Below are positions 40,747-64,000 of a DNA stretch of 64,000 nt, in pieces; positions within the stretch are counted from its first letter, which is position 1, and each line of letters begins with the position of its first letter. The DNA is taken from the NCBI RefSeq assembly GCF_041381155.1, contig NC_091142.1:29819528-29883527 (forward strand), written 5' to 3'. A program made the translations under genes and the position numbers. The DNA is from Argopecten irradians. Lineage: Eukaryota. The notes beneath the pieces are model-generated. The model had not been told where the DNA came from. It worked only from the letters and a program-made list of their open reading frames with translations, and did not search any database.

Positions 40747-42668
40747 GTAAATTATCTGGAATATCGATAGTGTTTGTTCAATTCTATGCTAGGTGCTCCT
40801 TTTGATATTATTATTGCTTAGGGTGAACGCACGCATTCCATTATTCAAACGTAAACAGCACAACTATCTAGGTGACGTCAGTTCGCCCTCATACAATACA
40901 AAAAATGCCAAGTGCTACAGTAGTATACCTGTTAGACCTAGGCCTACGGTAGACGTTCAGTCGCGCCCATATAGCTTAGCTTATGATCTTTGCTATAGAC
41001 AAAGCAGATACAAAATATTGACGTTGAAATCCTGTGGATTATTATAACCACATAACTTGTCATTATAACCCCCCTCCCGACTCAAAATTACTTTTAGGTC
41101 CAATCTAGATCGTATAAAGTTACAATCTGAATTACAACTCCACTATGTCTTCTAAGGGTTATCCAATCATGAGAAGGCCCAACAGAGTTGCACCTCAAAG
41201 TCCCTTTTAGCTATACAAAAAACCTTCAAACTGAAGCCATGAATTGGTTAGTAACTCATTCATCCCTGAAATTTCATAATGTACTACATTCAGTATAGCT
41301 AGACAGTCTTTGATTTCAAAGAGCCTTAAATAAGTCTTCAGGGCTGAATGAGTTCAGCAAATTAAACCAGTTAATGAGTTTTAGTTTAAAACTGATTTGT
41401 GTAACAAATGGAAAGTTTTCAAAATGGGTTTGAAACTATAAACTGTACATGTTTAAATGTAATTTTAATTAATGGATAATATATACTCCTTGTTTTAATT
41501 AATGGATAATTTAGAGAAAATGTTTAGGCCCACATGTAGTTTTAATTGATGGATAATTTAGAGAAACAAATTCGCCCTAAGGAACATGTAGCTTCTCTGG
41601 CTTGTACATATATTAATAATTTTGTTATAGTGTTAAGTATAAGTATAGGCACAGCCACTGTATATGTACATAACTCCTGATGGATGGAGCCTTGGCTTCT
41701 CCACAGAATCTAGGGTTTATGATAAACATGGTGTCAGCACCCACATTCGATTACTGGTGGGTGCAGTCGACTAGAAAGTATTTTCTCTGTTCTCAACATT
41801 TAAAACAGTAATTGGAATTGCATGGTTCTAGCAGAAACATATATACGTAGAGATTGGAAACTCCTTCTTTGTCTTTGTTGACAGGCAGAGGGACCTCCGG
41901 TTTATAGGCATGTTCCCTTGACTAACTACTGTTAAGTGTATTGATTCTTTTAAACATGATATTTGTGTATCAATACAAAGTTTAAACATTATATTAAGGT
42001 TTAATGAGATCAGTTTTATAAATTGATGTTATTTAATATGATTTTTGAAAGCATGAAAATAAGCAATTTTACCTGGTTTTTTGAAAATCAGACATTCAAA
42101 ACCGGAAGTGCATTTTGTTTTGTTAAGATATAAGTTAAAATATCATTTTTTCTTTCCAAAATCGTACTCAAACCATCTGAAAATTACTGAACTTTTATAA
42201 CAAATCAAAGTTATTCTGCTGTTTTAACTATTTAAGAGTTTATCTAAAAACCCCTAGGGACTTACAGAGGTACATCTGCCAATCATAAAAATGGCGGAGT
42301 TGCCAATCTCTATGTATATATGTTTCTGGTTCCAGATTACCATGTAGCTAGTTACTTTTGCATAATGGTATTTTTGCAGGACATTGCTATGATTGCAAAA
42401 TTCTGATCCCCTAAATATGACATGGTTGAAACGTATCTGTATATGGAAATATAGAAAATTTAAACCAGCTGAAATTTTCATGTCTTTAGTTAAAATTGTG
42501 AAAATTTTGACTCGTGACAAATAATACTAATATAATTAATCCTCGGAAGATGGTTTGAATGTCTTTGATTGGACAGGAATGTTTTCTAGTTTTAAATACT
42601 AGTTTTATTGATATGTGATTGACAATAGCATATAAATCATTGGTCTGTTTTTACACTTTTTTTTATAG

Positions 42669-42842
42669 ATTCAAGTTTGGCTGGAGAATGTTTTCGGAGG
42701 AGAACCAGTACCGTCATACGAACTGAACAAAACAACAATTAGTGTGCTGTATGACTTGATGAGGAAGAATCGGTCTATTGATGAGGATAAACAACTTATT
42801 ATAGCAGACTTACGTCAGAAAACACAGAGTACAATGCTGAAG
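42669..42842 (+). CDS. HAUS1: HAUS1 exon 2 (copy A): IQVWLENVFGGEPVPSYELNKTTISVLYDLMRKNRSIDEDKQLIIADLRQKT…. It is 174 nt and 1 nt shorter than copy B, so it is frameshifted.
   Basis: The acceptor is ttttatag|ATT and the donor is GAAG|GTTACC. It is identical to copy B (61172-61346) except that acacagag stands in place of acacaagag. Confidence 0.8.
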
Positions 42843-42923
42843 GTTACCTTGATAATTTCTTGAAAAATAGGGTTTAATTTCCTATATGTGGGTTTCAAGA
42901 TACCAAAACAATATCTGTGAACT

Positions 42924-43279
42924 TAAAGGTGCTCCACCGCCGACAGATATTCATCATTTGAACAATAATTGGTGTTTATTCGTGTGTATATATATGTCTA
43001 ATTAACACAAAAATAAAATAAAATTAAAAAAGATTATTTTGCCTTTGGTGCAGGCGCAATCTGTACTTCATTCCGTATAAGATATAGTGTCATGGAATTT
43101 TTTCGGGATGCAAATAGTTATTTTTCATATCTTTAACTTGAAGTAAAATTTGAAGCTGAATTTTTTCAATGTAATGGTGTAAAGTAAGTAACTTTTGTAA
43201 CTGAAGAAAAATACTAAATCATCTGCTCCTGTTTTTGATAGTAAAATAAAACTATTTGTCAGCGGGGGAGCATCTTTAA
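42924..43279 (+). mobile_element. Same TTAA-flanked MITE family, copy 2, in HAUS1 intron 2.
   Basis: It reads cTTAA|AGGTGCTCCACCGCCGACA…TGTCAGCGGGGGAGCATCT|TTAAg. Its interior is the reverse complement of copy 1. Confidence 0.75.
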
Positions 43280-44133
43280 GTATGATTTACCATGTACTAG
43301 TCTGTGATTGTACATGTGACATTCAGTGTTTCAGACTGACTTCAAAAACTTAAGGGCATTTTGGAAGAGTACTGGCAAAATGGCCTAAATATCACAAAAA
43401 TTATGTCTAAATAATAATATGTACAGGAATTAATAAAGTTAGCCCTGTTGAAGAAAAATCAAACATCACCTACATTTTTTTTGTATCTAGAAATTATTAC
43501 CAGTGGATAATTCAATAAAAGCACAAGTCACAAATATACGATCTTGACACCAGATTGGCAAATCTACACTTGGCAAGTTTGAAAAAAACAGTAGGCAATT
43601 CTGATCTATCAGAGTTACTTCCCTTTGTTTCTCTCTGTCAGTACTTATCCTAATTATAACTCGATTAACCTCTTCTACTTCTGTTCATTTGATTTGTAGC
43701 TCTTCTGCTTCTGGAAGCTCTTCTATCTATGAGGTGGAAGATCTTCTGAGAAGACTTCTGTTATTAGTAGAGCGCAAATCGTGTTGAGCTCTGGTGGAAG
43801 GTGTACGGCTAAACCATTGAATCTGAATTCTCTAATACTCTTAGATGATAAAACATATATGTCAGAAAGTTCTTGCTTGAGTTGAAATTATTCAGGCATG
43901 ACATACCACTGTCCATAATGAGATATTTAATCCAGAAGTAAAATATATTCCTGTACTTGGGGAAGTTGTGTTCAGTTACATATGTAGCTATTTACACTAC
44001 TTATAACTTTAATATTCAATTTTGAATTTTCTATACTATTAAATACTGGATTATTAAAATTTTAAAGCATTTCAGATTTGAGTAGTACATTAATAGTAAT
44101 ACAGGGTAGAGGTTTTGTTGTTTCTGTTTCCAG

Positions 44134-44266
44134 CTGGAAGGTTAGAGCAGGTGCTGAGAGGAGTCGGCCTGACATCGGCAGTGTTATCACAGTCGGGTGT
44201 AATGAGTCTGAGAAGTCTGGCTAACGTTGCCTTACTACTACAGATCAAGGATGTATCAGATACCAA
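44134..44266 (+). CDS. HAUS1: HAUS1 exon 3 (copy A): …AGRLEQVLRGVGLTSAVLSQSGVMSLRSLANVALLLQIKDVSDTK.
   Basis: The acceptor is tttccag|CT and the donor is CAA|GTAAGA. The peptide is collinear with human HAUS1. Confidence 0.8.
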
Positions 44267-45088
44267 GTAAGAGGATGGTCAATAAGGGAATAAAAGCATG
44301 AAATACTGAGGTATTCTGTACTGGGTCTGGATCAGGTTGATTGCTGATGATCATGACCAGGTAGACCAATGGGATTAATTCACGTACCATGCGATACCGG
44401 TAAGATTTTTGCGGGATTATTGTTTCTATTGGTGATGGAATGACATCAAAAGATGATATACACTGTTTCAAAAGGAAGATTACAAATACATGCGCTCAAT
44501 CACCACTTGAGATTCTAGTCCCACACAAACGTTTTCGGGTATCACATGGTACATAAATTAGTCCCATTAGTGCACATCTGGTTAATGTATGGCGCATACC
44601 CAGTAGTTCGCAGTGTACATGGATATGTGACTGATTTCTTCTTTTATTCTTTATATCTGTGGTCTTTTTAGGCTGAATATAGGCCCCATTCCTGTAAGTG
44701 CAACTTTTTCCCAATTTAATCCTATTATAAAAATACAGAAAAAAAGATAGAAAAAATTAGAGCATAATATTGAATTTTAGATATTGGAAATTACCATCTG
44801 CCATCTGCTTGTTTAACTAACTTATCTCTATTAAATTTGTTGAATATGAATTTTATGATTAAGTAATTACAATTGAAATATTTATGTTCTGTTTGTAGGA
44901 ATGTGGGCATTTAAAATTTGTTATTGGTTTTGTTGATACATGAGGTAAAAGATTTAGTTTCAAATTTTGTAAATGTTATATGAGGTGGTATCTTTTAAAG
45001 TATCTGGGACATAGATGAGAAACAGATTTTTTAAAACATGCTCTGACATCTGAAATACTGAAATGGATGTGTAATGTATTATTTCAGT

Positions 45089-45223
45089 TACATGTTAGCA
45101 TTACAAGCCCTGCAGGACGAACTGTACCAAGCAGAGGAGAGTTATCACCAAGAACAGACAACTCTGCAGAATCTCAGGGATAAATCTAAAAATGCTCTGT
45201 TGAAATATAACACCATTAAAAGG
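45089..45223 (+). CDS. HAUS1: HAUS1 exon 4 (copy A): NYMLALQALQDELYQAEESYHQEQTTLQNLRDKSKNALLKYNTIK.
   Basis: The acceptor is tatttcag|TT and the donor is AAAAG|GTACAT. Confidence 0.8.
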
Positions 45224-45589
45224 TACATTTCTTAAATATGATCTTAATTTTAATTGAACTATTTGATTGGATTTTGATAATTGAATTAGATAATCCTGTA
45301 GAATTCCATGCCACGAACTACTAAGGTTGGGTACTGTTAAGAACGAAACAGGAAGGCAATCCTACGTACCCCTAGGGATCTTGGTGCACAGAAAAAAGGT
45401 CAATTTGATGGGGAAAGAAAGTGCTCATTAGAATGAAACTGACCACATATAGTGCACTGAGAGCAAAAGAGTCTGGTAACAAGAGGCCCAACTTGGCTAT
45501 ATTCTGTTTTAATTTCATTGAGATGAATGCCACCTTGATTTGGTATGAAACTTAAGCTTCTAGATGACTCTTTTTCTTTCTCTGAGCAG

Positions 45590-45713
45590 AAGTCTAACGA
45601 TGCTACAACAGCAAGCCAAGACTCAGCATCCAGAGATGGAAGGCAAGGCCAAAGAAACAAAGTTCACACGAGAAAAAGCCAAGGAATACAAAGAAAAAAT
45701 TGCTCAACTTCAG
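45590..45713 (+). CDS. HAUS1: HAUS1 exon 5: RSLTMLQQQAKTQHPEMEGKAKETKFTREKAKEYKEKIAQLQ.
   Basis: The acceptor is ctgagcag|A and the donor is CTTCAG|GTAATT. It matches ORF 45564..45770. Confidence 0.8.
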
Positions 45714-46723
45714 GTAATTTCTGTGAACTATATTTTAGCTTTCTCAGTAATGTGCACGGCAAAATTGTAGAGCAAACCCATGCTTGGTCTGATGGAACTT
45801 GGGCCTCTATAAGAAAAAAATCTGAATTTTAGAAATCTCTTTTTGCATGAATGAATGCACCTTTTTAAAGATGTTTTTGTATCGCCTGTGATGATAGATC
45901 GCGAAGGCGATACTATGGTGATACTTTTCCAGTGGCGGCGTTGTCGTCAACATTTCACTTTACAGTTTTGTGTTAAGCTTTGTTTCTCAAAAAGTTTAAG
46001 TTGAATCCTAACCAAACTTTAAACATAGCTTATCACCTCAACACACCTAATTATTGCAGGATTCATTACGGAGGCCGTGGGATGTAGAGGCTCAGTCGCT
46101 GTGAAACTTAGGGATGCTAAACTATTCATAAGACTTGACTTTAAAGTTTTGCGTCTGTTTCTCAAAAACTGTAAATAAACTATAATTCCAATTCTAACCA
46201 AATTTTAAACATAGCTAAAGGCCATCATTATCACCTCAACACACCTAATTGTTGCAGGATGCAGTGATGCTAAACTATACTTAGCTCTTTTTCTCAAAAA
46301 GCGTAAGTCTTATCCTAACAAATCTTTGAATATAGCTGAAGGCCATCATTATCTCCTCAACTGACCTTATTGTTGCAGGATTCATTTCAGGGTGTGGGAT
46401 TCAGATGCTGGTTGTATGACACATTTATGCTGCATTTCTCTTTTTCTTGATTTTGTTTTACTTTCAGATGTTTTTAAATATTCCATTTATAAATCAACAA
46501 TGCGGTCAATACTTATAATTACGCGTAATTCTTGTTTGAGTATGTCTGTTAGTTATGACATCCTGAATACTTAAGGAGTTAAATCTATTGTTTAAATCTA
46601 ACAAATTACATTTTGAGGAGAATTATCATTCTTTTTTTTTTAATCTCATTTCTGTGTTTACTTTTAATTGTTTGAAATAAAAGTGATTTGTGTTTTGAAC
46701 ATATAAATTTCTTTTTTGTACAG

Positions 46724-46789
46724 AAAGTTTTATCCAGTACTGGAGTTGATTCGTCCATATATCATAGAGAACTTGTTCAAAAGTCAGAG
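46724..46789 (+). CDS. HAUS1: HAUS1 exon 6: KVLSSTGVDSSIYHRELVQKSE.
   Basis: The acceptor is ttttgtacag|AAA and the donor is CAGAG|GTAAAT. Confidence 0.75.
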
Positions 46790-46988
46790 GTAAATATCTC
46801 CACAAATTTCAGTTCCTTTTATAACAAAAATATTCCTAAACATAAAATTTCATGGCAAACTTATATTTCTTTCTTTCAAACTTTGCTGATAAAAAAAATA
46901 TATCAATTTGATATACAGTACCGGATATGTATATTTTGTATTTTCAAACTGCAGTATATATTACAGATTTCTACCTTGTGATTTCTAG

Positions 46989-47060
46989 GAACTACAGAAG
47001 CTGAAGGAGCAGATGGCCCCACTCAAGGGAAAGTTACAGACTTACCATAGCCTACCCCCA
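46989..47060 (+). CDS. HAUS1: HAUS1 exon 7: ELQKLKEQMAPLKGKLQTYHSLPP. Compare human LKQQTIPLKKKLESYLDLMP.
   Basis: The acceptor is atttctag|GAA and the donor is CCCCA|GTATGT. Confidence 0.8.
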
Positions 47061-47781
47061 GTATGTAAAGTATCATTAAAGTGAATAGTTTAGCAAAAAA
47101 AAACCAGTCAAAATGCGTTCATTGGCCTTCCAAAAGTCCTTACAAATCAAAACGATGAAATTTGCCTAACTCTTTGAAAGTGAGGCTGCGTGAAAATGTA
47201 AACATGGACATAGCTAGCCGGAATGGTTGTTTTAGGATTCATATAATTTATATTGATTTTTTCGCATGGAGAGTGATTTTGAAGGGAGATTTTATTTTTC
47301 TATTTTATAAGAAATTATACTGGATACCTTCACAGCATTTTTACCGACTTTAGCCTTCCTTTACCTGACTATTCACTTTAATATTGCTAAGAGGAACTAA
47401 TTACAAGTTAACAATAATATTAAATTACAAGTGACAAATTTTTGTTCAGTGTTCTCAAAGACAAAACTTAAGCTTATAATCGCTTCACAAATCTTGTTTT
47501 CCATTTAGTTTGAAGCTTGTCTGGAGGCATTAAGAAACAAATTTAGTTTTACAATTTCAAACATACCGGTACTTTCTTGACAAAAGACAATGGGATCAGA
47601 TAACAAGCATTACCTATATAGATCTTCTCCCTAGATTTAGTTTTACTTATCTTGTTTTCCATGAATTATTAAGTTTGAAGCTAGTTCAACTATTCTAATA
47701 ATTGTGTGGTCTACTTAGAGAATAAATTGTCTGGATCGAGGCATTAACAATAGACTTTAGCTTTACTGATCTTTCTTACAG

Positions 47782-47829
47782 GATATCTCATTGACAAAAG
47801 TAAAGCTGGAAGAACTGAAGAGAGAAGTG
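47782..47829 (+). CDS. HAUS1: HAUS1 exon 8: DISLTKVKLEELKREV.
   Basis: The acceptor is tcttacag|GAT and the donor is GTG|GTAGGT. Confidence 0.75.
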
Positions 47830-48678
47830 GTAGGTGTTGATATATTCTTAAGAAAAATCTTTAATATTAATTATAGAGTATTATTGAAGCATGATCATTA
47901 GATTACATATAAAAACCCTGTAGTCTTGTCCAATAACTATATTGCTTTTATCTGAGAAAATCACTCGCTTCCAATTATTTATTGTCCATCTCATGTTGGC
48001 TTAGATGGCACTGAAGTGTTCTTTTAGAAGTCTGAACATTCCTTTGCTCATTGTATTTAACAATAATATTATTAAGGGATTCCCTCCTATTGTTTTTAAC
48101 AGTCCTCTCCAAAGAACGATAATCTCGCAAATTTATTAACTTTGGTCATATACTTTTGGCCTGTTCTCCACTGAACCACATGTACAAAATTTGTTAACAA
48201 AGTCTATAACTGTAGACTGTATTTTTTATACATACCTATCTTTCTTCGTGAATATCCACTCCATAACATCCCTATGATAATATTTTTAACGCCCAACGAC
48301 AGTTCTGTCCCTTTTCGGCACATCATGCCAATACACATCCACGGGAAAAAACCAGAAAGCAGACGACAACAGCAATATTGTGTGACGTAACATCACGTCA
48401 TACGCAAACCTAAAAAACGTCGCACATCATCATCAGTGAAGCTTACAATGAATGCCTAGGCCATTTTTATCAAAATTATTGACGCGACATAAACACGCCT
48501 TCATTGTGACTGATACTTTTGGCATGGCACTGTACATATTGTTGATTGTAAGAGATTAATAGATTAGGCAAAAAAGTTTAAACACTTTGTTTTTAATATT
48601 TGAGAAATAAGGTGACCGTTAAGAACCATAGATCTATTGTTTTGATTTATTATTATTGAATGCAATTGATTTTTACAG

Positions 48679-48729
48679 GATCTGCTGGAATCAGAAGTAT
48701 GCAAAAATATTGACTTGATGCATATATGA
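48679..48729 (+). CDS. HAUS1: HAUS1 terminal exon: DLLESEVCKNIDLMHI, ending in a TGA stop at 48727-48729.
   Basis: The acceptor is ttttacag|GAT. The C-terminus is collinear with human …ELTRRVDMMEL*. Confidence 0.75.
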   Translation, partial: DLLESEVCKNIDLMHI

Positions 48730-50329
48730 AAGCAGAAAACATATTGATGGCCCACCCTTTACAACTGTCACTCAAAAAGAAGAGGCTCCTGCTCATCACA
48801 GAAAGTCTAATTATCAGACAGATCTATCGGCCTGATCTCCGGCAGTGTTCTTCTGATAATTGTAAGGTTTCTGGCTTTTGTTTATTGTTTTAAGCCAACA
48901 AACCTTACAAAAACCAGGATTTGAGTTTTCACAAGCACAGATCGGATAAAGATGATAGGCAGACGTTTTTGAAGCTTCAAAATAGACTAAATTTAAAGCA
49001 ATTCACATAAAAAGTTAAAGGGACAATTCATTCTAAGAGAACATTAAAATTTGTACATATATCGAAAAAAAAACCAGTTCTAATGGAATTTAGATCAGTC
49101 GGTTTTACTGTGATGTGCCTGAAAAGCCCATGGTGGTGACATGTGTGTGAAATTTTCAAACTTGTGGTCGAACTTCTTGTATGCCGAACCCTGTCCCTTG
49201 CTCGTAGAGTAATGAAACGTTTGTTTATAACTGCTCAAATCGCTCTGACAATAGTGTGTTAAGCAGGTAGAATATGGGCGCTGTACCTTTACCCGAGCCA
49301 AAGTCACGCACGTTAAACAAATGAACTACATAACCACTGCGAAGGTGATAAAATGATTTTGAGGCAAGATAATTCACATAATAAGGTTAATTGTATTGAT
49401 CAATGATTTGATATTTCAACGATATTAATTAAAATACTTAACAATGACGTGGAATTTGTCAATATTTAACGTTATTTTTTGTTTCATAAGAAATATAGAA
49501 CAATACATTTATGCCATATTTCACTTCTTGGTTATGTAAAAGAATTAGCCTGAGTGAAATTGTCCCTTTAATATTTACAGGTTACTGTTAACCAAATTTA
49601 TTTCACAGTTACTAAATTTCTTAATTTCAGGTTCAAAACATTTTCATAGAGATTAAGTTTTAGCGGATTAAAAATTGAATTGAGATATCTTTGAATTTAA
49701 TTGTGCAAGAATGATCAAAGATATTATTCAAGCGTTCTTGCTACGTGACTATCCTGCACAAAATTGCAAGATGGCGTGATTTGCTTATGAATCTAAATGC
49801 TACACCTCAGATGGCGTAGCAATGATGCATGTATTGTATATTGTATACACAATGTTAATTAAGTATTGACACTTTGGTCACATAGTAACACCCCAAAACT
49901 TGGTGTATTAATAAAAAAGTGGTATTCTTCAAAGCAAATTCTGATAGTAATTTTGGAAATGTTCTATATCCTGAGGGTGTACAAACCATGAAAAACATGG
50001 TCTTACATGTATAACTTGATGTATTGTTAAAAAAATTTCTAATGAATGGGTACATATACACTTTGTACAGATTGAACAAAAATATATTCTGCTCGTTTTA
50101 TCTTAACTGAAAACTGTATTTTCACTATCATAGTGCTATGGGTATATGATACATGTAATTTAATTCATCACATATTTATTGGTACATATATTTTTATGAG
50201 AGATTAAAATGAAAAAAATTATACTTTGTGTTGATTTTATGTACATGATGAGGTTATTATTTAGTATTCTTATTATATGTGTTGATTATGTGTACAGGAT
50301 AAGGTTATAATTATCAGACCAAAAAAAAA

Positions 50330-50560
50330 TTCTGTTAAGGGTTACCCCTAATTTTTTACCCTGACCCTATTTTTTTTAATTTTTCAATGAAAAAGAATTA
50401 AAAGTTGGGATTTCATTCTCAGACTTCGGTTTCGCCATTATTTTAGAGTAAAAGTCACTATAAAAAAAAAATCCTTCCGACCTACCGGCCCTATTTTTTT
50501 TTTGCCTATGTCGCCCTAAACAGACATCTTTTTTTTTTGGTCTCATTTTAGTTATCTTTA
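50330..50560. repeat. Dispersed repeat, copy 1. An inverted copy is at 56290-56540.
   Basis: cattattttagagtaaaagtcacta…ccgacctaccggccctattt…ccctaaacag matches the reverse complement of 56300-56440. Confidence 0.6.
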
Positions 50561-51777
50561 TTCTAGATCTGCAGTGTGTTAGTTTCTTCCATACAATAGT
50601 GTTGGTATGGAAGGCAAATCTCTTACATATTTTGAAACAAAGTTCGTGTAAATTTTTCACAAGTTTAAATTTCTGGCTGGCACTTTGAGTACAAGTAAAA
50701 TTTTGAGGCTTTTTAGGTAGCATAAGCATGCCTAATGGCATGTCGAATTACTATGTTTCCCGTTAAGTAAAGTTGGGCTATTTCTTTCTTTGTGGTAGCT
50801 TTTATATCATCATCTTACACCAGACTTGATTATTGACTAGTGTGGAGAAATTAATTTATAAAACTGTCGTCAGCAAATTATAAACCTACAAATAGATAAG
50901 TACTGTATGGACGTTCTTTTTTGCAGGTCAGAATTTCTATGATTTGGCCCTATACTGTAAACCAACGAAAATGAAAATATATTGAAATTTACGTTAAATA
51001 AATATATATATATAGTAATTACTTATTCAGAGCAACATTAAAGATATAATTTCAATTAGATTGGGTTTGATTACAACTGTCTGCCGGTTCCGTCTGTGTA
51101 TAGTCCTCTGAAGCTGTTGAGATAGTTGCCACCTTTTGATTTTCACCATTTTCCAATTGCCCTACATACTCTCGATCAGGTATGCAGTTGATTAGTGAAG
51201 ATCCCTACGAGTAACCTAGAAAAAAAAACCCGGCGTTGACTCTATCCATCTCTTCCTTCAAAATAGTAATGATAGTAATGATAGACAAAAAACATTTGTT
51301 TGTTTTGAATACAGTTTAATATGAACACAAATTATTAATAGGTGAAAGTTTTTTCTCCTTGATACAAACAAACGAGGACAATACTTCTGTGATAGACATA
51401 CAACATGAAAATGTACGAGCTGATGTACTTATGGTGTTGGCACAAGTAATGCGTTAATTGTCTTCTCCATCTGGGATAATGAATCACTTAGATGATGCAT
51501 GGCATTTTCATTCAAAATGACACTTTTTATACTTTTTACATTAAAACACAACTCAAGACCTATGGTCACTAAACAATGTTAACATTATATAAAAGGTTGA
51601 TAAATGTTTTTCATTACTGAAAATGATATTGTATGACTGAAAACATTTTTTGTGGCATTTCAGTAAATTAATATGTGTATTTTTACCTATTTTGAACCCA
51701 TTGCAAAGAACAGAAATATAATGGAATATCTGGACTGTTGTTTTGTGGAAATTTTCTGAACAAGGCTTTTTTATTAG

Positions 51778-51976
51778 TTTAACATCCTATTAACAGCAAG
51801 GGTCAGACAAGGACGTGCCAGGTTTGTTGGTGGTACCCAGAGAAAAACCATCAACCAGCGGTCAGTATATCGGGCAACTGCTTCACGTAGGATTCAAACA
51901 CACGGCCGGGAGCTCGAGGTGGAGGGCTTGTGGAAATGTATAAAGATATCTTTACCACTCGACCACCGCGACCCCT
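51778..51976 (-). mobile_element. tRNA-derived SINE, copy 2, in inverted orientation.
   Basis: tttaacatcctattaacagc…gtgccaggtttgttggtgg… is the reverse complement of 8430-8546. Confidence 0.7.
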
Positions 51977-54719
51977 TTATTTTTCTGAGCCAAGTCTCCA
52001 TATCATGTATTGGTCATTTGTAGGTCGATTACCTTAAAATAGAATGGCTATCCTATCCACTGCCTAACTGATTTGAAACTAAGACCAAGTTTCATCTGAC
52101 CCCAACACCTATAGGTCAAATTTCACAACAAAACTGTTTATGTCGTTAGTGTACAGATTTTTAGATTCCAATATCAGATGTAGAAGCTGGATAGAAAAAA
52201 AGAAAACCAGTTAAATACTACACCGGAAAAAAATAATAAATTAACGTGAGGTTTGAACGAAAAACAAAGAAATATGAATGAAAAAAAAAAAAAAATCCAA
52301 AATGATGAATATGACAATTTACATATGAGTAACATGGTTTTTCTAGCAAATCACACCCAGTTACATGGTGTTGAATGATAAAGACCTCAAAATATTCTAT
52401 TTGGTCATATCTACATTTGCCATTGGTAACAACACAAACTTTGCATAATTTTTTTATATGATTGATGATAACTTAAGTTATGCCAGATGTGTAATCAATT
52501 AAAGCTATAAAGTTAAGTCAACATGATCCTCTGACCTTTACACGTAACAATAATAAACACATTATGTAAATTTGATACTATTTTTAAGTGCCCTGGGCGC
52601 TAAATGACGGCATTATGGTAAGTGCACAAGTACTTGCGTAGTCATTATAAAACCAAATTGCATGATATAACTTGTGGTATGTATTACATACATGTAATTA
52701 AAAACATCATTAACACTACTTTCCAGGCTTTTGATTAAAATATCCCAAGCCTAATAAAAGAATCTGGTATAAATTTCAGAGTGACATTGTATGATGGTAG
52801 TACCTTTTAAAATGATCTTGAAATAAACGAAAAGCTAGCCAGCATATATATCAACGAGGTTTGCCTACTGATCTGGTCCTGCTCCAATAATCAGATGACT
52901 TCAATTAACAAATGCAGTTCAGCCTTACCAACTCTTAGTAAAATTAGTATATGAAGCTTTTATTAACTGTCAAAATCTAGAGATCTGTACATGTCTATAT
53001 ACCATGATGGCAAACGTATAAAAGATGAATTTTGATGGATGAAAGAACAAAGAAAAGAAAGTCTCACCACTATATGAAACTCTTTGGGCTCTTACTTGTA
53101 ACAGAGATATGCATTATATCAGATTGCCTGTAAACAGGGGTGGAGACTGGTGTAGGACTTTTATATTACGGTCGTATATTGATTTTATATTACGGTCGTA
53201 TATTGATTCTAGCACTTGTGCCAGAGAACTTTCTATATTTTTCAAGGCTGTATTTTTCAATAAATAATTCAGATACCATAGTACTTTTCACAGGAATTTG
53301 GCATGTATTTCCACCCAATGATTCAAAATCCTGTGTAAATATACTGGTAGATATTTGGTATTTGTACCAAATCCCTGTGACAATAGTAGAAGACATGTGT
53401 TTTTTCCAGATGAAAAATAAGAAAACATAATATTTAAAATTATTATGTCATACATCAAGAATGCTTAGTATGTGGCATACGTATTTAGCACACCGGCAAG
53501 TCAAAAAGACCCATTATACAGACTAATACTAATGGATAGTAGGTCTTTGATTTACCGGCTTGCTAAATACCTATATGGTATGGGGCACAATACAAAAAAC
53601 ATACTGTACGGTATAAATATATGGCAACAATGGTTTTATGTGCACTTGACAAGATAACACAAACAATGAATATATATATATATATATATAATAATGGGAT
53701 GAATATATACAGATTGCATGTATAATTACATGTAAATACTGTTTCATAAAAACAACACTTTAGTAGTAGCTACTATGCACGTACTTCTATGAAGCCAAAA
53801 AAACCAAAACAAATAATGAAGAAAGAAAAAATCAAAAACGTCAACAGCATAAATGGACAAAATATGGTCACAGTAAAACTAAAACAGATCAAGTAAATAT
53901 ACAAAGGTAATTTATATCAAATATAGCTGTTATTAACATGAATCAAATGTTTTCGAGACCGTAGCAATGTCCAGCGAAATCAGGAAATATTGTTTCCACC
54001 AAATAAAATGTACATTAAGTTTAAAGTCCTTCATATAGTTTCTTGAAAAACTACATTTTAAAACTACAGTAATTAAGTAATTCTGAAAAAAATGTTTTCA
54101 CAAAAAAAAAAAAAAAAAAATAAAAAAAAAAATAGAAGTACATTTGTATTTCAATGCTGAAATTGAAGGAAATGGACTGTTGCGTAGCTTTCAAATAATA
54201 GACAGTTCACCTAGAACATGTCCTAATTGGCAAGTGAATGGAACAGCTTTTAATGTAAAAATGTATTTTTATATGTTAGAAGGGCAGTCATGGGGCGAAA
54301 TTTTACCTAGTAGTCTTTTATCGATGAATTTTAAGTCATTGAATAAAAATGAAATAAATGGATGAAGAGTGTGTATCACAATTAAGGAAAAATGGCAAGC
54401 TTCATTAACTTAAAATTTCAGAGAACCCACTCTTTTAATACCTAAGAAATATTACTGTATCCAAGCATAAATATGAAAGTACCAGATAGAGGGGAGTACA
54501 TACAAATATGGAAAGTCCTCGATGAAAGTGGTCTTTATAAGAAACCAAGGAATATGAAAAATAAAATATTTTTGTGCAAGCCGGAATGCTTTGTTGTTTT
54601 ATCCCAGGCAATTTATTTGAAAGAGTAATCTCCCTTTCAAGGTAAAAATTTTTAGGACGGAAAAAAATGTGAGATTGAACAAGGACGTATATGAGAAGGA
54701 TAAGTCACACTGAGTTTTA

Positions 54720-55080
54720 GGCAAAGACAGCGCAGGCGCTTTTGTGTTTGTGCACTGACCATGACGTTGGGCGACGACTGATTTCCTTTGATATCCGCCG
54801 CCGCAGTCTTTGATGTAGCATGGGGGTGCGAGGGTTACCGTCTTACTTTCTGAAGCGTGCTGCCATTTCGTAAGCGGTCGTATTTTTTTAACGATAGTTT
54901 AAGACATTTTTTCTAAATCTTCCGTCTTTAAAGCAAGTTATAAACGTTGTGAAATTTAATTTACTTTACATTGGTGTTTCGTTTGAGCTCGATAAGACAA
55001 AGTATTTGTTGAGAAAAACGGTTTTTATTTACCGGTTCATAAGCGTCTCGCGTGGTGTTTAGTAATGTAAAGAGACAGAC
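54720..55080. promoter_or_regulatory. CpG-rich island-like patch in otherwise CpG-poor sequence; possible promoter or first exon of an unidentified gene.
   Basis: There is a local cluster of CG dinucleotides (gcgcaggcgc, ccgccgccgc, cgtctcgcgtgg) that is absent from the flanks. Confidence 0.25.
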
Positions 55081-56289
55081 ACGAATCCTTCTCACTTATA
55101 AATCCTTGGATTGAATGACAAAAAAATCTTAAACAAAATTGATGAATAGAAATCGAAGATCCTACTAAAGCAAGAAGATTTAGAATTGGTCTTCCCATGA
55201 GTATAGATTAATTAAAAGTTTTGACTTTTATTTTTTTTTACATATTTTTAATAACATTTAAATGAAACACACACAAATTTCAATACTGTATTACATGGAA
55301 ATGCTACTAAAGATGAATCCAGTACAGGGTACAGTATAAGTAATTAAAGACAAATTATATTTTTCTGGTGTTGAGAAACAGAAATATATAGTTAGTTAAA
55401 TCATATTTTTTTGCATTGTAGGAGACCCCATGGTAACGCTACCCTTCATCATGATAAGTGTAGCTGTGCATAGCAGTGCGATCAACAGTGGGTTTTTGAT
55501 GTTCACAAAAAATTTCTTGTACATTTATATAGAAATCTATGTTGAATATTTGTAACATTTTTTTCCTATTTGTTCCTTTGTCATCTTCAAAAAGGCTGAT
55601 AATGTCATGAAAATTCTATCAATCTGTTTAAAAACCAGATTTTGGAATAAAGCTCCGATACCCCTCACGCTCCAGTACAATAATGTAACAGAGAGGAGGT
55701 TTGCCGGAATGGCATGGAAATCAAGATATGATTTTGATCAGATTGAAATTATATCCATGTATCTGGGAAATACAGATCCGGATAAATTAATGAAATAAAA
55801 TTCCCTTACATTGGTGAATTTATTAAATCTGGGCAATATGTTCCTTCTCATTCAAGAAAATTCGACTCAAAAATACTGCCGAATCCGCTATATATATGGT
55901 AGTTGACATCTTTTATCACATATCACATGCTAAACTAATTCAGCTCAACTATTAACACATTGCCCCTTTCTCCTTTCCCCCCCCCCCCCCCCCTTCTCAA
56001 CGATAGTAAGTAAATTCAATGAAAGAAAAAAAATCAAGCACTTAAATTCCAACAGTAGAAATACATTTGCCAAAAAAAAAATAGAGAAAAAAGAACACTT
56101 GCAAATAAATATTCAAATAAATTGAACTACAGCAAAAAAACCTATATACATTGTACAGAGGACTGTGATAAATAACACTCCCTTGGGGCGGTGGCCCAAC
56201 ACTCATACAGTAGAAAACAGTAAACCCCTACGCTCAAGAGAGACAACCAGAGTATCAAGTATCAATCTTGTTGTGCATGTGATATTGTT

Positions 56290-56540
56290 GCCATATTAGG
56301 CAAAAAAAAAAAGCCTGTTTAGGGTTACATTGCAAAAGAAATAAGGTCGGTAGGTCGGGGGGAGTTTATTTTTAGTGTCTTTCACTCTAAAATAATGGCT
56401 GGAACTGGAGTCTGAGATCAAAATCCCAACTTTTCTTTTTTTTTTCGATAGAAAAAGTGGAGAGAAAAAGATTTGGGTCAATGATTAAAATTAGGTCGGT
56501 CGGGCAACTCTCAACAGACATATTATTTTTTGCTCTACTA
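56290..56540. repeat. Dispersed repeat, copy 2, inverted relative to 50330-50560.
   Basis: As above. Confidence 0.6.
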
Positions 56541-58713
56541 AAGTATTCAAACGGTATAAATTTCAATATGGGACAATTTTTGTTTTCTGATGTTGTATTA
56601 CATTATATTGGCGTTCAAAAAGGGTCAAGACTACAAGGTTTGGTAGCTAGATACGGTCTTCTGGTATAGCCGACACTATTTCACACATTTTTAAAACAGT
56701 ATATCGAGATGGCAATATATTAAGGATTTATAAATTTATGGCAGTCTCTGATTGGGTAATTTTGGTGGCAAGGGAAATGTAAGGGTTGGCAGTTCGTGGT
56801 GGATGAGTGGACTGATGGAAAGGAAAGATTTCATTGTCTCTATATTGGTAACTATGTCGCCATGAATAAATCCTTATAAAAATCAGAATTTTTTTTTCAG
56901 TGGACAGCATACTGATATACCAATGTGGCTAATTAAAGTAAATACAATCACCATGATCAGACCTTTATAAAACACATCAACACACACAAAAACATTGTTA
57001 AACTGTAACATAACAAAACTTTTTGATTTTCGCATTACATTTCAAAAAAAAAAAAAAAAATACAGAAAAAAAAATCGCATTTTGTTCACTAAATGTAGGT
57101 AACAGTACATGTAATTAACATATTTAATACTTTTTAAAGAATTAATGTACCATAGCTTTGCCTGCTTGTTGAACAATGAAACCTGCTAATAATATCAGAA
57201 TTTCTAGCCTTGCACTGAGGTATGGTGTATGTTTCTTCGTTTTCAATAAAAAATTTATTATCCAAAATGACATACAAAATATCAAAGTAGAGGTTGTGGA
57301 ATCTTTTTCATACCCATTCATTAACAATCTTAACTTTAATCTATAATTTTCGGTCCACAAACGAAAAGAGAATTGTTGACATGGAAATTGGCCTGATCAG
57401 CAAATGTTTTGCATCAAGTCTCATAGTTACACACCGGTCCCTATATCATATCCCATCCAGACATAATATTGTGAAAATCAATCTTACAGCCTTGGTTTTG
57501 ATCAAGCAATAATGAAATTAATACTTGTGAGACATGACAATAAACCTTGTTCTACAACCAAATGTTCACTGTATATACACATTTGAAACAATAACTTTTG
57601 TGAGGAGGAGATTCCTTACTCATTTCGAGTTTGCATCAAGCCACCTAGGGGACAGTCATCCTCGATACTTCAGGGGTTCTATCAATGACGTGGATATAAC
57701 GTCAAGTTGATAGTAACGCCTTTAGTCTTGAAGATGTATGACAGCAACGTCAACCAACCAATAATCTATTTACAATACTGTAAAACCAATCTTTTATGTG
57801 CTGCAAGTTAAATTACTAAGTTTCCCGTCATTCCAGTAGTCATTAAGAAAATAACCGAAAAAATTGCCAACGCACTAATAAAGTTTCTGAGCACTGGTTT
57901 AGTATGATACGAATTAACTCTAATATTGTGAAATCACAATTGGTCTGGAAAATGTCCCGTTAGGTACGAAAATCGCGAAATACCGTCGCCACAAAAAATA
58001 AGTAGGTTTACAGTACCTTGTTCATGATCATGACGTATTTCTTTACAAACATGACATGTCATAATATTCAAAGGATAATCCTGAGGCAACACATGAAAAT
58101 ATTTCAGTAGCAAACTTCACATTTTGTTGAAGACTATTGCCAAATCTGTGGATGAAATCCGGTGGTGAACTGTTTTCACTGGTTAGCATGTCCATGTTCA
58201 AGGTTCGGACACACCAAAGTTTGATAGACAGTTTGTCAAGTTCCTCCAGACTCGAGTGGAATGTGTCGTGAGCTTGACCTGGCTAGCCCCTAGACTGGCG
58301 CACAAGAGGGGTCAGAGGATTCAAGAAATGGCTTACTAGAAGCCGCCTTTGCTAGACTATCAATCTGTTTACTGGTAGGGGCAATCATTTTTATGTCGAC
58401 GCAGGTCTGAATTGTCAGACTTTGTTATGAATGAGACAGAATTTGTTTGTGAGGCTTCAAGGAAAGTACACCAAAATTTGGGTTAATCTTGCTCTCTTTT
58501 GAAGACTCCATGACCTGTTCTACATTTTGATTTCTAATATCAAGTGAATTATCTCCCCCTTCCATTATCTCCCTTTTTCACAAATCCTGTCCTTGGATAT
58601 CTAAAGCTTGGTCATTGTTCCCATTTTATTATTCTCTGAACACGTTCTTTGTCTGTAACAGTCTCCTTCTTGCATATGTCGGATTTTAACAGTTTTCTCC
58701 GCCACATTTACAC

Positions 58714-58923
58714 CTGAAGGTTCTCCTAGGTAGTCCATAAGGGTAGAATCCTTGGTAAATTTCATGAGACATGCCGGGTGATTCGTATGTTTATCATAAC
58801 AGTGACAGATGAAGCTGATGTCGAAGTGGAGCAGCGTAGTAGCAGTACACACAGCTGAATCCCAGGATTGAGGGACTCCATTTTCCATTGGGTGTAATGT
58901 GTAAGATGGTGAAGAATCCTCAC
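58714..58923 (-). CDS. Candidate orphan exon: …EDSSPSYTLHPMENGVPQSWDSAVCTATTLLHFDISFICHCYDKHTNHPACLMKFTKDSTLMDYLGEPSG.
   Basis: A strong acceptor (tttcttcccag|GTG) and donor (CCTTCAG|GTGTAA) bracket a 210-nt open frame. No family was recognised and neighbouring exons were not found. Confidence 0.3.
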
Positions 58924-61171
58924 CTGGGAAGAAAAAGAGTCAGTTATAATTACATGTAATTACCATAAGTTTCATAAATCATTTTTCAAAGGAGGATTAA
59001 AATAAAATTTGAAAATATCAGAGTAATAAAGGTTCTAAACTTTAAACATACAAGTGGTCTAGAGGGCCTGTATCACTGACGTGGTTTATTCAGTAATTAC
59101 CACAAAAACAATATTTTACAATTGGAAAAATAGCAAAAATTTACAATGCAGTTTGTGAATGTCTATTGTTGACAGACGACACGGTATTGCATAAGTATAG
59201 AGACTTATGAACATGAGACTCAGAAGAGATCTAGATAATTAACCAAGTAAACAGAATTCGACAGTTCAAAAATTTAGCAAATCTGGATGGTTTGGGCTGA
59301 GGTCGCAAGTGTTTCAGGTTGTCGGGAGTACACTATAAATGTACATCTGGTGAGTTGAGCATATCAAACATATAAATCACAAATCACATGTATGTGAAGG
59401 ATATTTGAATGAAAATGGGGCAGTTTGTTTCTCTACGTTTACAGAAAACCATACATAATAATGTAATATATTGGTGATTTGTGGTAATTTGTGGTAATAA
59501 GTAATAATAAATTTTAGTGTCTAGTGATCACTTACAGGTGTCTCAGCTGTCTTTAACTTTCCAATTTTGCCCCTTCGCTTGGCAATCAGCTGCTATGCAA
59601 GATTTTCTCTATCTTTGATGGATTTCTATTTCATTTGCCAATGTCTTGGGAAATTTCTTCAACTTTGGCATAGTTGGTGACAAATCAGAAAGTTGTCTGT
59701 ATTTCACTTCAGTGTTGTCCTTTAGGAGCCTTTGGTGTCGAGCAACCTTTTGTGTAGAAATTTTCAAGTTGAGCTCAGGATAGGTTCAACTGATATGGCC
59801 GTCCTGCATACTTTAGGCTGCATGCCTTTATGATTCTTTGATTTCAAAGAACCTTAAATAAGTCTTCAGGGCTGAATGAGTTCAGCAAATTAAACCAGTT
59901 AATGAGTTTTAGTTTAAAACTGATTTGTGTAACAAATCGAAAGTTTTCAAAATGGGTTTGAAACTATAAACTGTACATGTTTACATGTAGTTTTAATTAA
60001 TGGATAATTTAGAGAAAATGTTTAGGCCCACATGTAGTTTTAATTGATGGATAATTTAGAGAAACAAATTCGCCCTAAAGAACATGTAGCTTCTCTGGCT
60101 TGTACATATATTAATATTTTTGTTATATAGTGTTAAGTATATATATAGGCACAGCCACTGTATATGTACATAACTCCTGATGGATGGAGCCTTGGCTTCT
60201 CCACAGAATCTAGGGTTTATGATAAACATGGTGTCATGATCAGCACCCACATTCGATTACTTGTGGGTGCAGTCGACTAGAAAGTATTTTCTCTGTTCTC
60301 AACATTTAAAACAGTAATTGGAATTGCATGGTTCTAGCAGAAACATATATACGTAGAGATTGGAAACTCCTTCTTTGTCTTTGTTGACAGGCAGAGGGAC
60401 CTCCGGTTTATAGGCATGTTCCCTTGACTAACTACTGTTAAGTGTATTGATTCTTTTAAACATGATATTTGTGTATCAATACAAAGTTTAAACATTATAT
60501 TAAGGTTTAATGAGATCAGTTTTATAAATTGATGTTATTTAATATGATTTTTGAAAGCATGAAAATAAGCAATTTTACCTGGTTTTTTGAAAATCAGACA
60601 TTCAAAACCGGAAGTGCATTTTGTTTTGTTAAGATAGAAGTTAAAATATCATTTTTTCTTTCCAAAATCGTACTCAAACCATCTGAAAATTACTGAACTT
60701 TTATAACAAATCAAAGTTATTCTGCTGTTTTAACTATTTAAGAGTTTATATAAAAACCCCTAGGGAATTACAGAGGTACATCTGCCGATCGTAAAAATGG
60801 CGGAGTTGCCAATCTCTATGTATATATGTTTCTGGTTCCAGATTACCATTAGCTAGGTTTTTTTGCATAATGGTATTTTCGCAGGACATTGCTATGATTG
60901 CAAAATTCTGATCCCTAAATATACATGGTTGAAACGTATCTGTATATGGAAATATAGAAAATTTAAACCAGCTGAAATTTTCATGTCTTTAGTTAAAATT
61001 GTGAAAATTTTGACTCGTGACAAATAATACTAATATAATTAATCCTCGGAAGATGGTTTGAATGTCTTTGATTGGACAGGAATGTTTTCTAGTTTTAAAT
61101 ACTAGTTTTATTGATATGTTATTGACAATAGCATATAAATCATTGGTCTGTTTTTACACTTTTTTTTATAG

Positions 61172-61346
61172 ATTCAAGTTTGGCTGGAGAATGTTTTCGG
61201 AGGAGAACCAGTACCGTCATACGAACTGAACAAAACAACAATTAGTGTGCTGTATGACTTGATGAGGAAGAATCGGTCTATTGATGAGGATAAACAACTT
61301 ATTATAGCAGACTTACGTCAGAAAACACAAGAGTACAATGCTGAAG
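61172..61346 (+). CDS. HAUS1: HAUS1 exon 2, duplicate copy B. It is 175 nt and in frame.
   Basis: It is the same sequence as copy A with one extra A (acacaagag) and encodes …RQKTQEYNAE. Confidence 0.7.
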
Positions 61347-61434
61347 GTTACCTTGATAATTTCTTAAAAAATAGGGTTTAATTTCCTATATGTGGGTTTC
61401 AAGATACCAAAACAATATCCGTGAACTTAAAGGT

Positions 61435-61787
61435 GCTCCACCGCCGACAGATATTCATCATTTGAACAATAATTGGTGTTTATTCGTGTGTATATATATG
61501 TCTAATTAACACAAAAAAACAAAAACAAAATTAAAAAAGATTATTTTGCCTTTGGTGCAGGCGCAATCTGTACTTCATTCCGTATAAGATATAGTGCCAT
61601 GGAATTTTTTCGGGATGCAATTAGTTATTTTTCATATCTTTAACTTAAAGTAAAATTGTAAGCTGAAACTTCTCAATGTAATGGTGTAAAGTAAGTAACT
61701 TTTGTAACTGAAGAAAAATACTAAATCATCTGCCCCTGTTTTTGATAGTAAAATAATACTATTTGTCAGCGGTGGAGCATCTTTAAG
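61435..61787 (+). mobile_element. Same MITE family, copy 3, inside duplicate block B.
   Basis: It is the paralogous position of copy 2 in the segmental duplication. Confidence 0.75.
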
Positions 61788-62657
61788 TATGATTTACTAT
61801 GTGCTAGTCTGCTACCTGCCGGTGATTGTACATGTGGCATTCAGTGTTTCAGACTGACTTCAAAAACTTAAGGACATTTTGGAAGAGTACTGGCAAAATG
61901 GCCTAAATTTAGTCCTAATCTGAATCACTGGATATCACAAAAGTTATGTCTAAATAATAATATGTACAGGAATTAATAAAGTTAGCCCTGTTGAAGAAAA
62001 ATCAAACACCACCACTACATTTTTTTTTGTATCTAGAAATTATTACCAGTGGATAATATTCAATAAAAGCACAAGTCACAAATATACGATCTTGACACCA
62101 GATTGGCAATTTTGAAAAAAACAGTAGGCCATTCTGATCTATCAGAGTTACTTCCCTTTGTTTCTCTCTGTCAGTACTTATCCTAATTATAACTCGATTA
62201 ACCTCTTCTACTTCTGTTCACTTGATTTGTAGCTCTTCTGCTTCTGGAAGCTCTTCTATCTATGTGGTTGACGATCTTCTGAGAAGACTTCTGTTATTAG
62301 TAGAGCGCAAATCGTGTTGAGCTCTGGTGGAAACGGCTAAACCATTGAATCTGAATTCTCTAATACTCTTAGATGATAAAACATATATGTCAGAAAGTTC
62401 TTGCTTGAGTTGAAATTATTCAGGCATGACATACCACTGTCCATAATGAGATATTTAATCCAGAAGTAAAATATATTCCTGTACTTGGGGAAGTTGTGTT
62501 CAGTTACATATGTAGCTAATTACACTACTTATAACTTATTCAATTTTGAATTTTCTATACTATTAAATACTGGATTATTAAAATTTTAAAGCATTTCAGA
62601 TTTGAATAGTACATTAATAGTAATACATGATAGAGGTTTGGTTGTTTCTGTTTCCAG

Positions 62658-62790
62658 CTGGAAGGTTAGAGCAGGTGCTGAGAGGAGTCGGCCTGACATC
62701 GTCAGTGTTATCACAGTCGGGTGTAATGAGTCTGAGAAGTCTGGCTAACGTCGCCTTACTACTACAGATCAAGGATGTATCAGATACCAA
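62658..62790 (+). CDS. HAUS1: HAUS1 exon 3, duplicate copy B.
   Basis: There are 2 substitutions relative to copy A, one nonsynonymous (Ala to Ser). The splice sites are conserved. Confidence 0.7.
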
Positions 62791-63597
62791 GTAAGAGGAT
62801 GGTCAATAAGGGAATAAAAGCATGAAATACTGAGGTATTCTGTACTGGGTCTGGATCAGGTTGATTGCTGATGATCATGACCAGGTAGACCAATGGGATT
62901 AATTACGTACCATGTGATACCGGTAAGATTTTTGCGGGATTATTGTTTCTATTGGTGATGGAATGACATCAAAAGATGATATACACTGTTTCAAAAGGAA
63001 GATTACAAATACATGCGCTCAATCACCACTTGAGATTCTAGTCCCACACAAACGTTTTCGGGTATCACATGGTACATAAATTAGTCCCATTAGTGCACAT
63101 CTGGTTAATGTATGGCGCATACCCAGTAGTTCGCAGTGTACATGGATATGTGACTGATTTCTTCTTTTCTTCTTTATATTTGTGGTCTTTTTAGGCTGAA
63201 TATAGGCCCAATTCCTGTAAGTGCAACTTTTTCCCAATTAAATCCTATTATAAAAATACAGAAAAAAGATAGAAAAAATTAGAGCATAATATTGAATTTT
63301 AGATATTGGAAATTACCATCTGCCATCTGCTTGTTTAACTAACTTATCTCTTTTTTGTTGAATATGAATTTTATGATTAAGTAATTACAATTGAAATATT
63401 TTATGTTCTGTTTGTAGGAATGTGGGCATTTAAAATTTGTTATAGGTTTTGTTGATACATGAGGTAAAAGATTTAGTTTCAAATTTTGTAAATGTTATAT
63501 GAGGTGGTATCTTTTAAAGTATCTGGGACATATATGAAAAACAGATTTTTTAAACATGCTCTGACATCTGAAATGGATGTGTAATGTATTATTTCAG

Positions 63598-63732
63598 TTA
63601 CATGTTAGCATTACAAGCCCTGCAGGACGAACTGTACCAAGCAGAGGAGAGTTATCACCAAGAACAGACAACTCTGCAGAATCTCAGGGATAAATCTAAA
63701 AATGCTCTGTTGAAATATAACACCATTAAAAG
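63598..63732 (+). CDS. HAUS1: HAUS1 exon 4, duplicate copy B.
   Basis: The exon is identical to 45089-45223. Confidence 0.7.
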
Positions 63733-64000
63733 GTACATTTCTTTAATATGATCTTAATTTTAATTGAACTATTTGATTGGATTTTGATAATTGAATAAGA
63801 TAATCCTGTAGAATTCCATGCCACGAACTACTAAGGTTGGGTACTGTTAAGAACGAAACAGGAAGGCAATCCTAAGTACCCCTAGGGATCTTGGTGCACA
63901 GAAAAAAGGTCAATTTGATGGGGAAAGAAAGTGCTCATTAGAATGAAACTGACCACATATAGTGCACTGAGAGCAAAAGGGTCTGGTAAAAAGGCAACTT

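Follow-up and report, generated by a model that had tools for sequence, protein, structure and literature searches.

The stretch of DNA analysed here, referred to as the window, comprises 64,000 nt of the NY RefSeq assembly of Argopecten irradians, and all positions are given in window coordinates. It is eukaryotic DNA with 35% GC and contains no N at all. On its plus strand lies a nine-exon gene for HAUS1, the body of which occurs a second time further downstream in the same orientation; we call the upstream body copy A and the downstream one copy B. Our preferred, though tentative, explanation is a real and young tandem duplication in which copy A is the working gene, copy B is inert and a frameshift in copy A is a consensus error. 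If all variants of a real tandem duplication are taken together, a duplication of some kind becomes somewhat more probable than not. Repeats were located by self-BLAST, and the two copies were aligned globally with MAFFT.

The HAUS1 gene and its two bodies

Read through copy A, the gene has canonical AG/GT splice sites at all exons. Exon 1 (40705-40746) encodes MSSRSSKVNERHQE and is 100% identical to the start of all seven RNA-seq contigs (L001-L007), and the 5' untranslated region (5'UTR) extends upstream to 40639 at least. As originally predicted, exon 1 lies upstream of the duplication boundary and is single, i.e. a search of the whole window gave one occurrence. Exon 2 (42669-42842, 174 nt) and exon 3 (44134-44266) are those affected by the frameshift discussed below. 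They are followed by exons 4 (45088-45222), 5 (45590-45713), 6 (46724-46789), 7 (46989-47060), 8 (47782-47829) and 9 (48679-48729), which are all intact and match the transcripts at 97-100%; the splice-site reading bears out the intact exons 5-9 and the stop at 48729 that had been predicted (TGA, 48727-48729). The 3' untranslated region (3'UTR), as defined by transcript L001, covers 48730-50202. The conceptual protein of 281 aa matches the Pfam family HAUS1 (PF25762) over residues 14-249 with a score of 265 bits (E = 8.9e-79), where the gathering cut-off is 40, and is 85% identical to the HAUS1 protein of Ylistrum balloti and 88% identical to a partial protein of Pecten maximus.

The direct repeat pairs 41307-45494 (copy A) with 59835-64000 (copy B). 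The two differ by 70 substitutions in 4112 aligned bases, i.e. they are 98.3% identical (96.1% BLAST identity if gap columns are counted), and by 22 indel events, the largest of which is 30 bp long. The left boundary is sharp, with no alignment to the left of 41307/59835, and the right side runs into the end of the window. The blocks had earlier been placed at 41311-45500 and 59833-64000 with about 97-98% identity; the repeat is real, while its boundaries shift to 41307 and 59835. Only 41307-45494 of copy A has its partner inside the window. The repeat unit presumably extends over all 18,528 bp of 41307-59834 (plus strand) and comprises a portion of intron 1, exons 2-9 with the 3'UTR, and a non-coding tail of about 9.6 kb. 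Copy B (59835-64000, plus strand) contains the same partial intron 1 and exons 2-4 and is then cut off by the end of the window. No coding content could be recognised in the tail of copy A (48.7-59.8 kb), and neither its open reading frames (ORFs) nor the six-frame translation of 55000-59834 gave a Pfam match.

A few minor features of these sequences can be mentioned here. One of the 22 indel events concerns a 30-bp minisatellite (TTTTAATTAATGGATAATAT...), which has about two units in copy A (41463-41525) and one fewer in copy B (59990-60020). The 3'UTR of copy A contains an insertion of 549 bp (49019-49567) that is missing from transcript L001; its ends are the inverted repeats TTAAAGGGACAATT ... 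AATTGTCCCTTTAA, adjoining TTAA, and to judge by these ends it looks like a polymorphic insertion of a miniature inverted-repeat transposable element (MITE). Transcript L002 contains at least the first ~77 bp of the insertion. Further into the tail, a motif of the form …FYSKIMA…NFSFF… appears in the translations of ~50400-50700 (minus strand) and ~56300-56500, below the threshold of self-BLAST, which suggests two putative copies of a short dispersed repeat, similar to a MITE or a short interspersed nuclear element. Finally, HAUS1 is poorly assembled or annotated across scallop genomes. The public models of two other scallops, P0003 from Pecten maximus (215 aa, on a contig of 15,981 bp) and P0009 from Mizuhopecten yessoensis (177 aa), are both incomplete, one without exon 1 and exons 7-9 and the other without exons 1-3.

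The frameshift in exon 2 of copy A

The two copies differ at one point only within exon 2, the sequence being ACACAGAGTAC in copy A and ACACAAGAGTAC in copy B. The intact site is CACAAGAG, as in copy B, or CACAGGAG, and copy A has CACAGAG, i.e. it is one base short between 42825 and 42826 (CACA-GAG in the alignment). Both this deletion and the early stop had been correctly predicted: with the 174-nt exon 2 as assembled, exon 3 is read as CTG GAA GGT TAG, so that its fourth codon (44143-44145) is a stop.

The transcripts tell a different story. The seven RNA-seq contigs come from seven runs, one of which (SRR23580857) is mentioned in a publication about A. i. irradians, and encode the full 281-aa protein, with exon 1 and an in-frame exon 2 in 7/7 cases. 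At the site of the deletion, L002 has an A, as copy B does, and the other six transcripts have a G, which is a synonymous CAA/CAG polymorphism in a Gln codon. Four variable sites in exon 3 (44165, 44178, 44186 and 44228) define three haplotypes: CGAT is found in copy A and in L001-L004, TTGC in L005-L007, and CTAC in copy B only, i.e. in 0/7 transcripts. The transcripts are grouped differently by the variants in exon 2, exon 3 and the 3'UTR, and the HAUS1 locus looks highly polymorphic and recombining; the alternative is a chimeric assembly of two alleles within a sample. L002 is of special interest as it equals copy A at every coding position, including a rare T at 47784, except for the added A. 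Therefore, the coding haplotype of copy A exists intact in another animal.

There are only three sites at which copy A departs from all seven transcripts, and two of them (42825 and 48909) are 1-bp indels, the characteristic mark of errors left behind in a long-read consensus. At 48909 the reference has an extra A in an A5 run, and at 48734, five bases past the stop codon, it has an A where 7/7 transcripts have a C; both are likely to be either errors of the consensus or variants restricted to the reference animal. Since the frameshift is absent from 7/7 mRNAs, the same haplotype is intact in L002 and the assembly was made from noisy reads, the deletion in exon 2 most likely reflects a consensus error that the PacBio/Raven/HyPo pipeline left uncorrected, and we consider this distinctly more probable than a real private mutation. 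The deletion lies within a 244-bp stretch (42618-42861) in which copies A and B are otherwise identical, and short reads from this stretch might not have been uniquely placeable for polishing. Several other 1-bp indels between copies A and B lie outside homopolymers. A 75-aa truncated product, the ORFs of the genomic exon 2 and a downstream restart ORF were all absent among 15 billion proteins, which is a weak negative as the look-up required exact matches.

The consensus elsewhere in the window speaks against an error, since an ORF of 8.25 kb upstream (12377-20626) is unbroken. The consensus is thus good in unique sequence, and the rate of indel errors is not high everywhere; given this intact ORF, the frameshift may be a real private mutation. 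Bivalves carry a high load of recessive lethal alleles, and a real duplication with a real, unrescued frameshift would be an example of such load: the copy A transcript would be subject to nonsense-mediated decay, copy B would have no promoter, and the chromosome would carry a null or strongly reduced-function HAUS1 allele opposite an intact one. The deletion does not lie in a long homopolymer, which fits this explanation, as does the frameshift-free 8.25-kb ORF. Nevertheless we consider it improbable in view of the transcripts, all of which lack the deletion and one of which has the identical coding haplotype in intact form, and of the noisy reads behind the assembly; in addition, a 1-bp indel recurs among the other differences that are private to copy A.

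Copy B and its RefSeq model

Exons 2-4 of copy B (61172-61346, 62658-62790 and 63598-63732, plus strand) are in frame and have canonical splice sites. The RefSeq protein XP_069134331.1 (P0027, 278 aa) clusters with P0001, an RNA-seq protein that is 100% identical to the conceptual 281-aa protein, and its first 158 residues are reproduced exactly if these three exons are preceded by a substitute first exon at 58906-58938 (plus strand), located in the tail of copy A. This match shows the window to agree with the annotated NY assembly. The substitute exon encodes MVKNPHLGRKR and has a weak donor, GTCAGT. The C-terminus of XP_069134331.1 is complete, and the part corresponding to exons 5-9 encodes the same amino acids as copy A. 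As the protein continues through its complete C-terminus, copy B holds exons 5-9 beyond position 64000. Of the earlier description of copy B as carrying exons 2-4 and no exon 1, the second half stands within the window, and the apparent end at exon 4 is an effect of the window edge. Among the RNA-seq contigs of the collection, none encodes the N-terminus MVKNPHLGRKR. The most plausible view of the RefSeq model on copy B is that the substitute first exon allowed the annotator to get round the frameshift in copy A. In practical terms, the N-terminus of XP_069134331.1 is unsupported by the seven RNA-seq contigs, and the expressed protein is the one of 281 aa, with MSSRSSKVNERHQE at its start.

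Copy B, although it lacks the first exon, shows no decay. Copies A and B differ by one amino acid in 267 codons, at 44177-44179, where copy A has Ala while copy B and the outgroups have Ser, i.e. Ser is ancestral. Over these 267 codons copy B has acquired neither an indel nor a derived amino-acid change, where ~8.1 such changes would be expected if it had been neutral since the split (P = 3e-4). On these grounds an old duplication with a dead copy B was rejected.

One may ask if copy B is in fact the working body. In such a scheme the duplication and the frameshift would both be real, and HAUS1 would be expressed either by splicing from exon 1 over copy A, across an intron of 20.4 kb, or from a start in the substitute exon at 58906-58938. 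Copy B is fully intact and free of neutral decay, the RefSeq protein model is placed on it, and L005-L007 share with it the Ser codon and the C at 44228. The same three transcripts differ from copy B at 2/4 variable sites, though, and its haplotype CTAC is found in no transcript, which also runs against the original suggestion of a transcript that skips copy A and joins exon 1 to copy B. The alternative start fares no better, as the MVKNPHLGRKR sequence is in no RNA-seq contig and the donor of its exon is weak. Splicing over copy A would in turn have to bypass its first acceptor as well as its poly(A) sites, and four in-frame transcripts with the exon-3 haplotype of copy A indicate that bodies of the A type are used in the population. 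We therefore think it very improbable that copy B is the working body. A swap of gene bodies, in which exon 1 and its promoter drive copy B across a dead copy A that has poly(A) sites of its own, with duplication and frameshift both real, is likewise very improbable; if true, it would show an essential spindle gene caught while a tandem duplication replaces its body.

Neither copy can be shown to be a pseudogene. A recent tandem duplication with reciprocal decay, as the original prediction had it, holds up in its first part only. Duplication is the most likely structure, while reciprocal decay is not supported: copy B shows 0 changes in 267 codons where about 8 would be expected, and the lesion of copy A is absent from 7/7 mRNAs, its haplotype being intact in L002.

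The junction and the breakpoint

The tail of copy A meets the start of the second unit at 59834/59835 (feature 59827-59858), and there is no run of N's between them, i.e. the two head-to-tail copies are joined by continuous sequence. The published statistics of the assembly give 1.13 N per 100 kb, ~9,500 N overall, and these N's probably mark the joins of contigs. If they do, the junction lies inside one Raven contig, because the window has no N.

The proximal breakpoint, 41306/41307, falls within an inverted repeat that can form a hairpin (41253-41354), at 3 nt from its centre. The arms of this repeat (41253-41270 and 41337-41354) are 17/18 complementary and enclose a 66-nt loop. No other inverted repeat in the 64 kb combines 18-nt arms with one mismatch or none and a spacer of up to 100 nt, and as single-stranded DNA the hairpin has a fold z of -3.6. 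Depending on how the repeat is defined, only 0.01-0.08% of window positions are equally near to an inverted-repeat centre and 0.1-0.6% are inside such a loop. The repeat unit itself opens with a perfect 7-2-7 palindrome, TCTTTGA-TT-TCAAAGA (41307-41322), and at the junction the tail sequence extends the native 7-nt stem of this palindrome to 13/15. No repeat or homology was found at either breakpoint within the window, and non-allelic homologous recombination between flanking repeats was rejected for this reason.

In the explanation that we prefer, at least one chromosome of the sequenced animal would carry a young head-to-tail duplication of an 18.5-kb segment, which would start in intron 1 of HAUS1 and end ~11 kb past the gene, giving the order exon 1, exons 2-9 with tail, and again exons 2-9 with tail. 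The proximal break would have occurred in the loop of the inverted repeat, at the foot of the small perfect palindrome, and the ends would have been joined without homology. This would fit a break or a template switch induced by the structure and followed by end joining. Copy A, with exon 1 and the promoter, would be the working HAUS1 gene, and copy B, born without either, would be an inert passenger whose sequence still has the quality of a live allele. Such quality would mean that the duplication is very recent, or else that it is segregating and its copies recombine with ordinary single-copy alleles.

Other origins of the junction were considered as well. The inverted repeat could be taken as the ends of a transposon that has its long form in haplotype B, with the tail as its interior; no second left end was found in the window, the ORFs and the six-frame translation of 55000-59834 gave no transposase or other Pfam signal, and the tail has no copy elsewhere in the window. 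The transposon idea is thus unsupported, although a non-coding element may be involved. Ten small ORFs around the junction and the boundaries, looked up as a route to independent contigs across the junction, gave no match in the protein collection, which is uninformative either way.

Tandem duplication or two haplotypes laid end to end

The main competitor is a false duplication, i.e. a single-copy HAUS1 gene of which the two haplotypes of a heterozygous animal were laid end to end with exon 1 merged; the frameshift would then be an error of the consensus or else a loss-of-function allele in the heterozygous state. A false duplication should be taken seriously, even though we judge it to be less probable than a real one, and several observations weigh in its favour and against a real duplication. 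Firstly, the divergence between the copies is of allelic grade. It is 1.85% in introns, with 21 indel events, and 0.45% in exons, about fourfold lower in the latter (Fisher p = 0.03), and the intron value is within the allelic range of the species as judged by the 3'UTRs of the transcripts, which diverge from the window by 0.8-6%. Secondly, all exonic differences between A and B fall at sites that also segregate among the transcripts, i.e. they are shared with polymorphisms of the population. Thirdly, both copies look as if they were under purifying selection, in view of the exon-intron contrast and the single amino-acid difference. The undecayed copy B obliges a real duplication to make an added assumption, either recency or ongoing exchange with alleles. 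Finally, neither copy is complete as assembled, yet all mRNAs are.

The way in which the assembly was made also has to be considered. Raw PacBio reads (mean 14.2 kb) were assembled with Raven, treated with Purge Haplotigs, polished with HyPo and scaffolded with hicstuff and instaGRAAL, and Purge Haplotigs reduced a draft of 1 Gb to 846 Mb (PMC11439060). Noisy reads and a 1-Gb draft in need of purging are in keeping with a false duplication, and as Purge Haplotigs discards whole contigs only, the pipeline is prone to leave residual haplotypes, which could then be stitched together. According to the authors of instaGRAAL, unresolved haplotypes get interlaced. A gene beside itself is moreover a documented form of this artefact: most of ZBTB11 was falsely duplicated next to the gene in an earlier zebra finch assembly (PMC9516828).

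The scaffolder deserves a closer look. instaGRAAL permutes bins made of restriction fragments (DpnII/HinfI in this case), and a HinfI site, GATTC (G^ATTC), spans the junction at 59832-59836. No other cut site lies within 130 bp, and a random position would do as well in 1.6% of cases (p = 0.016). This could mean that the unit was moved as a piece by the Hi-C scaffolder. We have downgraded this possibility on three counts: there is no N at the junction, the repeat unit corresponds to 91 restriction fragments and not to a bin-sized 81 or 243, and the site would be private to haplotype B. Copy A has CAGTC where the junction has GATTC, and the argument thus needs two changes within 3 bp in haplotype B. 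The coincidence of the junction with the HinfI site is probably accidental.

More general objections apply to a false duplication of any origin. There is no run of N's between the copies, in an assembly that does contain N's, probably at the joins of contigs. For an overlap-layout assembler to pass from where one haplotype ends back to where the other begins, a repeat or a chimeric read would have to supply the edge, and the junction is free of repeats. In addition, the end of a contig or read would not be expected at the centre of the only strong hairpin of the window (p between 1e-4 and 6e-3). The earlier suggestion of an uncollapsed haplotig or an assembly error should hence be divided: an error is the likeliest cause of the 1-bp deletion, and for the duplication it is a serious rival, countered by the missing N run and by the breakpoint in the hairpin.

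Taken together, the undecayed copy B and the allelic divergence rule out an old duplicate that was dead on arrival, but not a young or segregating one, which is the explanation that we prefer. Ylistrum balloti has one HAUS1 gene of nine exons within 6 kb, with no second copy within 10 kb on either side, and this supports a single-copy ancestral state. A comparison of the two loci for the native status of the tail gave no similarity outside the exons, tblastx included.

Implications and neighbouring features

The arrangement has practical consequences whichever explanation is correct. Exons 2-9 are present twice in the reference and short reads map to both copies, which should be kept in mind in copy counting, variant calling and the design of knock-outs, and users of the locus should note that the frameshift in copy A probably has no biological reality. 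A real duplication would be a small and clean case of hairpin-associated, non-homologous tandem duplication, young enough to have a junction that can still be read, and as such of modest interest for the formation of structural variants in highly polymorphic bivalve genomes.

Upstream of HAUS1, the ORF at 12377-20626 (plus strand) encodes 2749 aa in which C2H2-type zinc-finger motifs are abundant by eye. It is followed by an acidic ORF of 340 aa (21982-23004, plus strand), and the two probably belong to one very large zinc-finger gene. A coding tandem repeat of 39 bp, SRRSASPKELMTS, occurs in ~5 copies at 15162-15402 within the 8.25-kb ORF. There are also two local direct repeats unrelated to HAUS1, one at 28399-28814 (~150-bp offset, 86% identity) and one at 979-1647 (~510-bp offset, 88.6%).

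Comparison with known systems

It is instructive to compare the locus with the systems that it resembles. As a member of the HAUS1 family the gene is ordinary in every respect, i.e. in its profile match, in its identity to scallop orthologues and in the order of its nine exons, which is that of the Ylistrum locus (L008). The protein does not differ from its family, and the sole oddity is the genomic arrangement in this assembly. This arrangement is either a partial-gene tandem duplication or a heterotype false duplication, both of which are well-known kinds.

The lesion in exon 2 can be set beside the residual 1-bp indels of PacBio continuous-long-read assemblies. Like these, it is a deletion of a single base in a coding sequence that has no other fault, it conflicts with all the Illumina-derived transcripts, and a second 1-bp indel in conflict with the transcripts is found 6 kb away. 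Unlike the typical case, the deletion is not in a long homopolymer, and a large ORF in the neighbourhood is free of errors.

Heterotype false duplications (Ko et al. 2022, PMC9516828) are similar in that a gene body lies beside itself, with haplotype-like divergence, in a heterozygous species assembled from noisy long reads, and in that the annotation contains an artefact, here a gene model with an invented first exon. What is different is that the gap between the copies, the hallmark visible in sequence, is absent, as there is no N anywhere in the window. Half depth, discordant read pairs and 1-copy k-mers are further hallmarks of this class (PMC9516828).

Partial-gene tandem duplications at DNA secondary structures share with the locus the head-to-tail order, the sharp junction free of homology, the breakpoint in the loop of an inverted repeat and a downstream copy without promoter and first exon. 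The present case, with the distal end of the second unit outside the window, is read at one junction only. It departs from this class in that the copies differ at an allelic level instead of being near-identical, and in that the 5'-truncated copy has not decayed.

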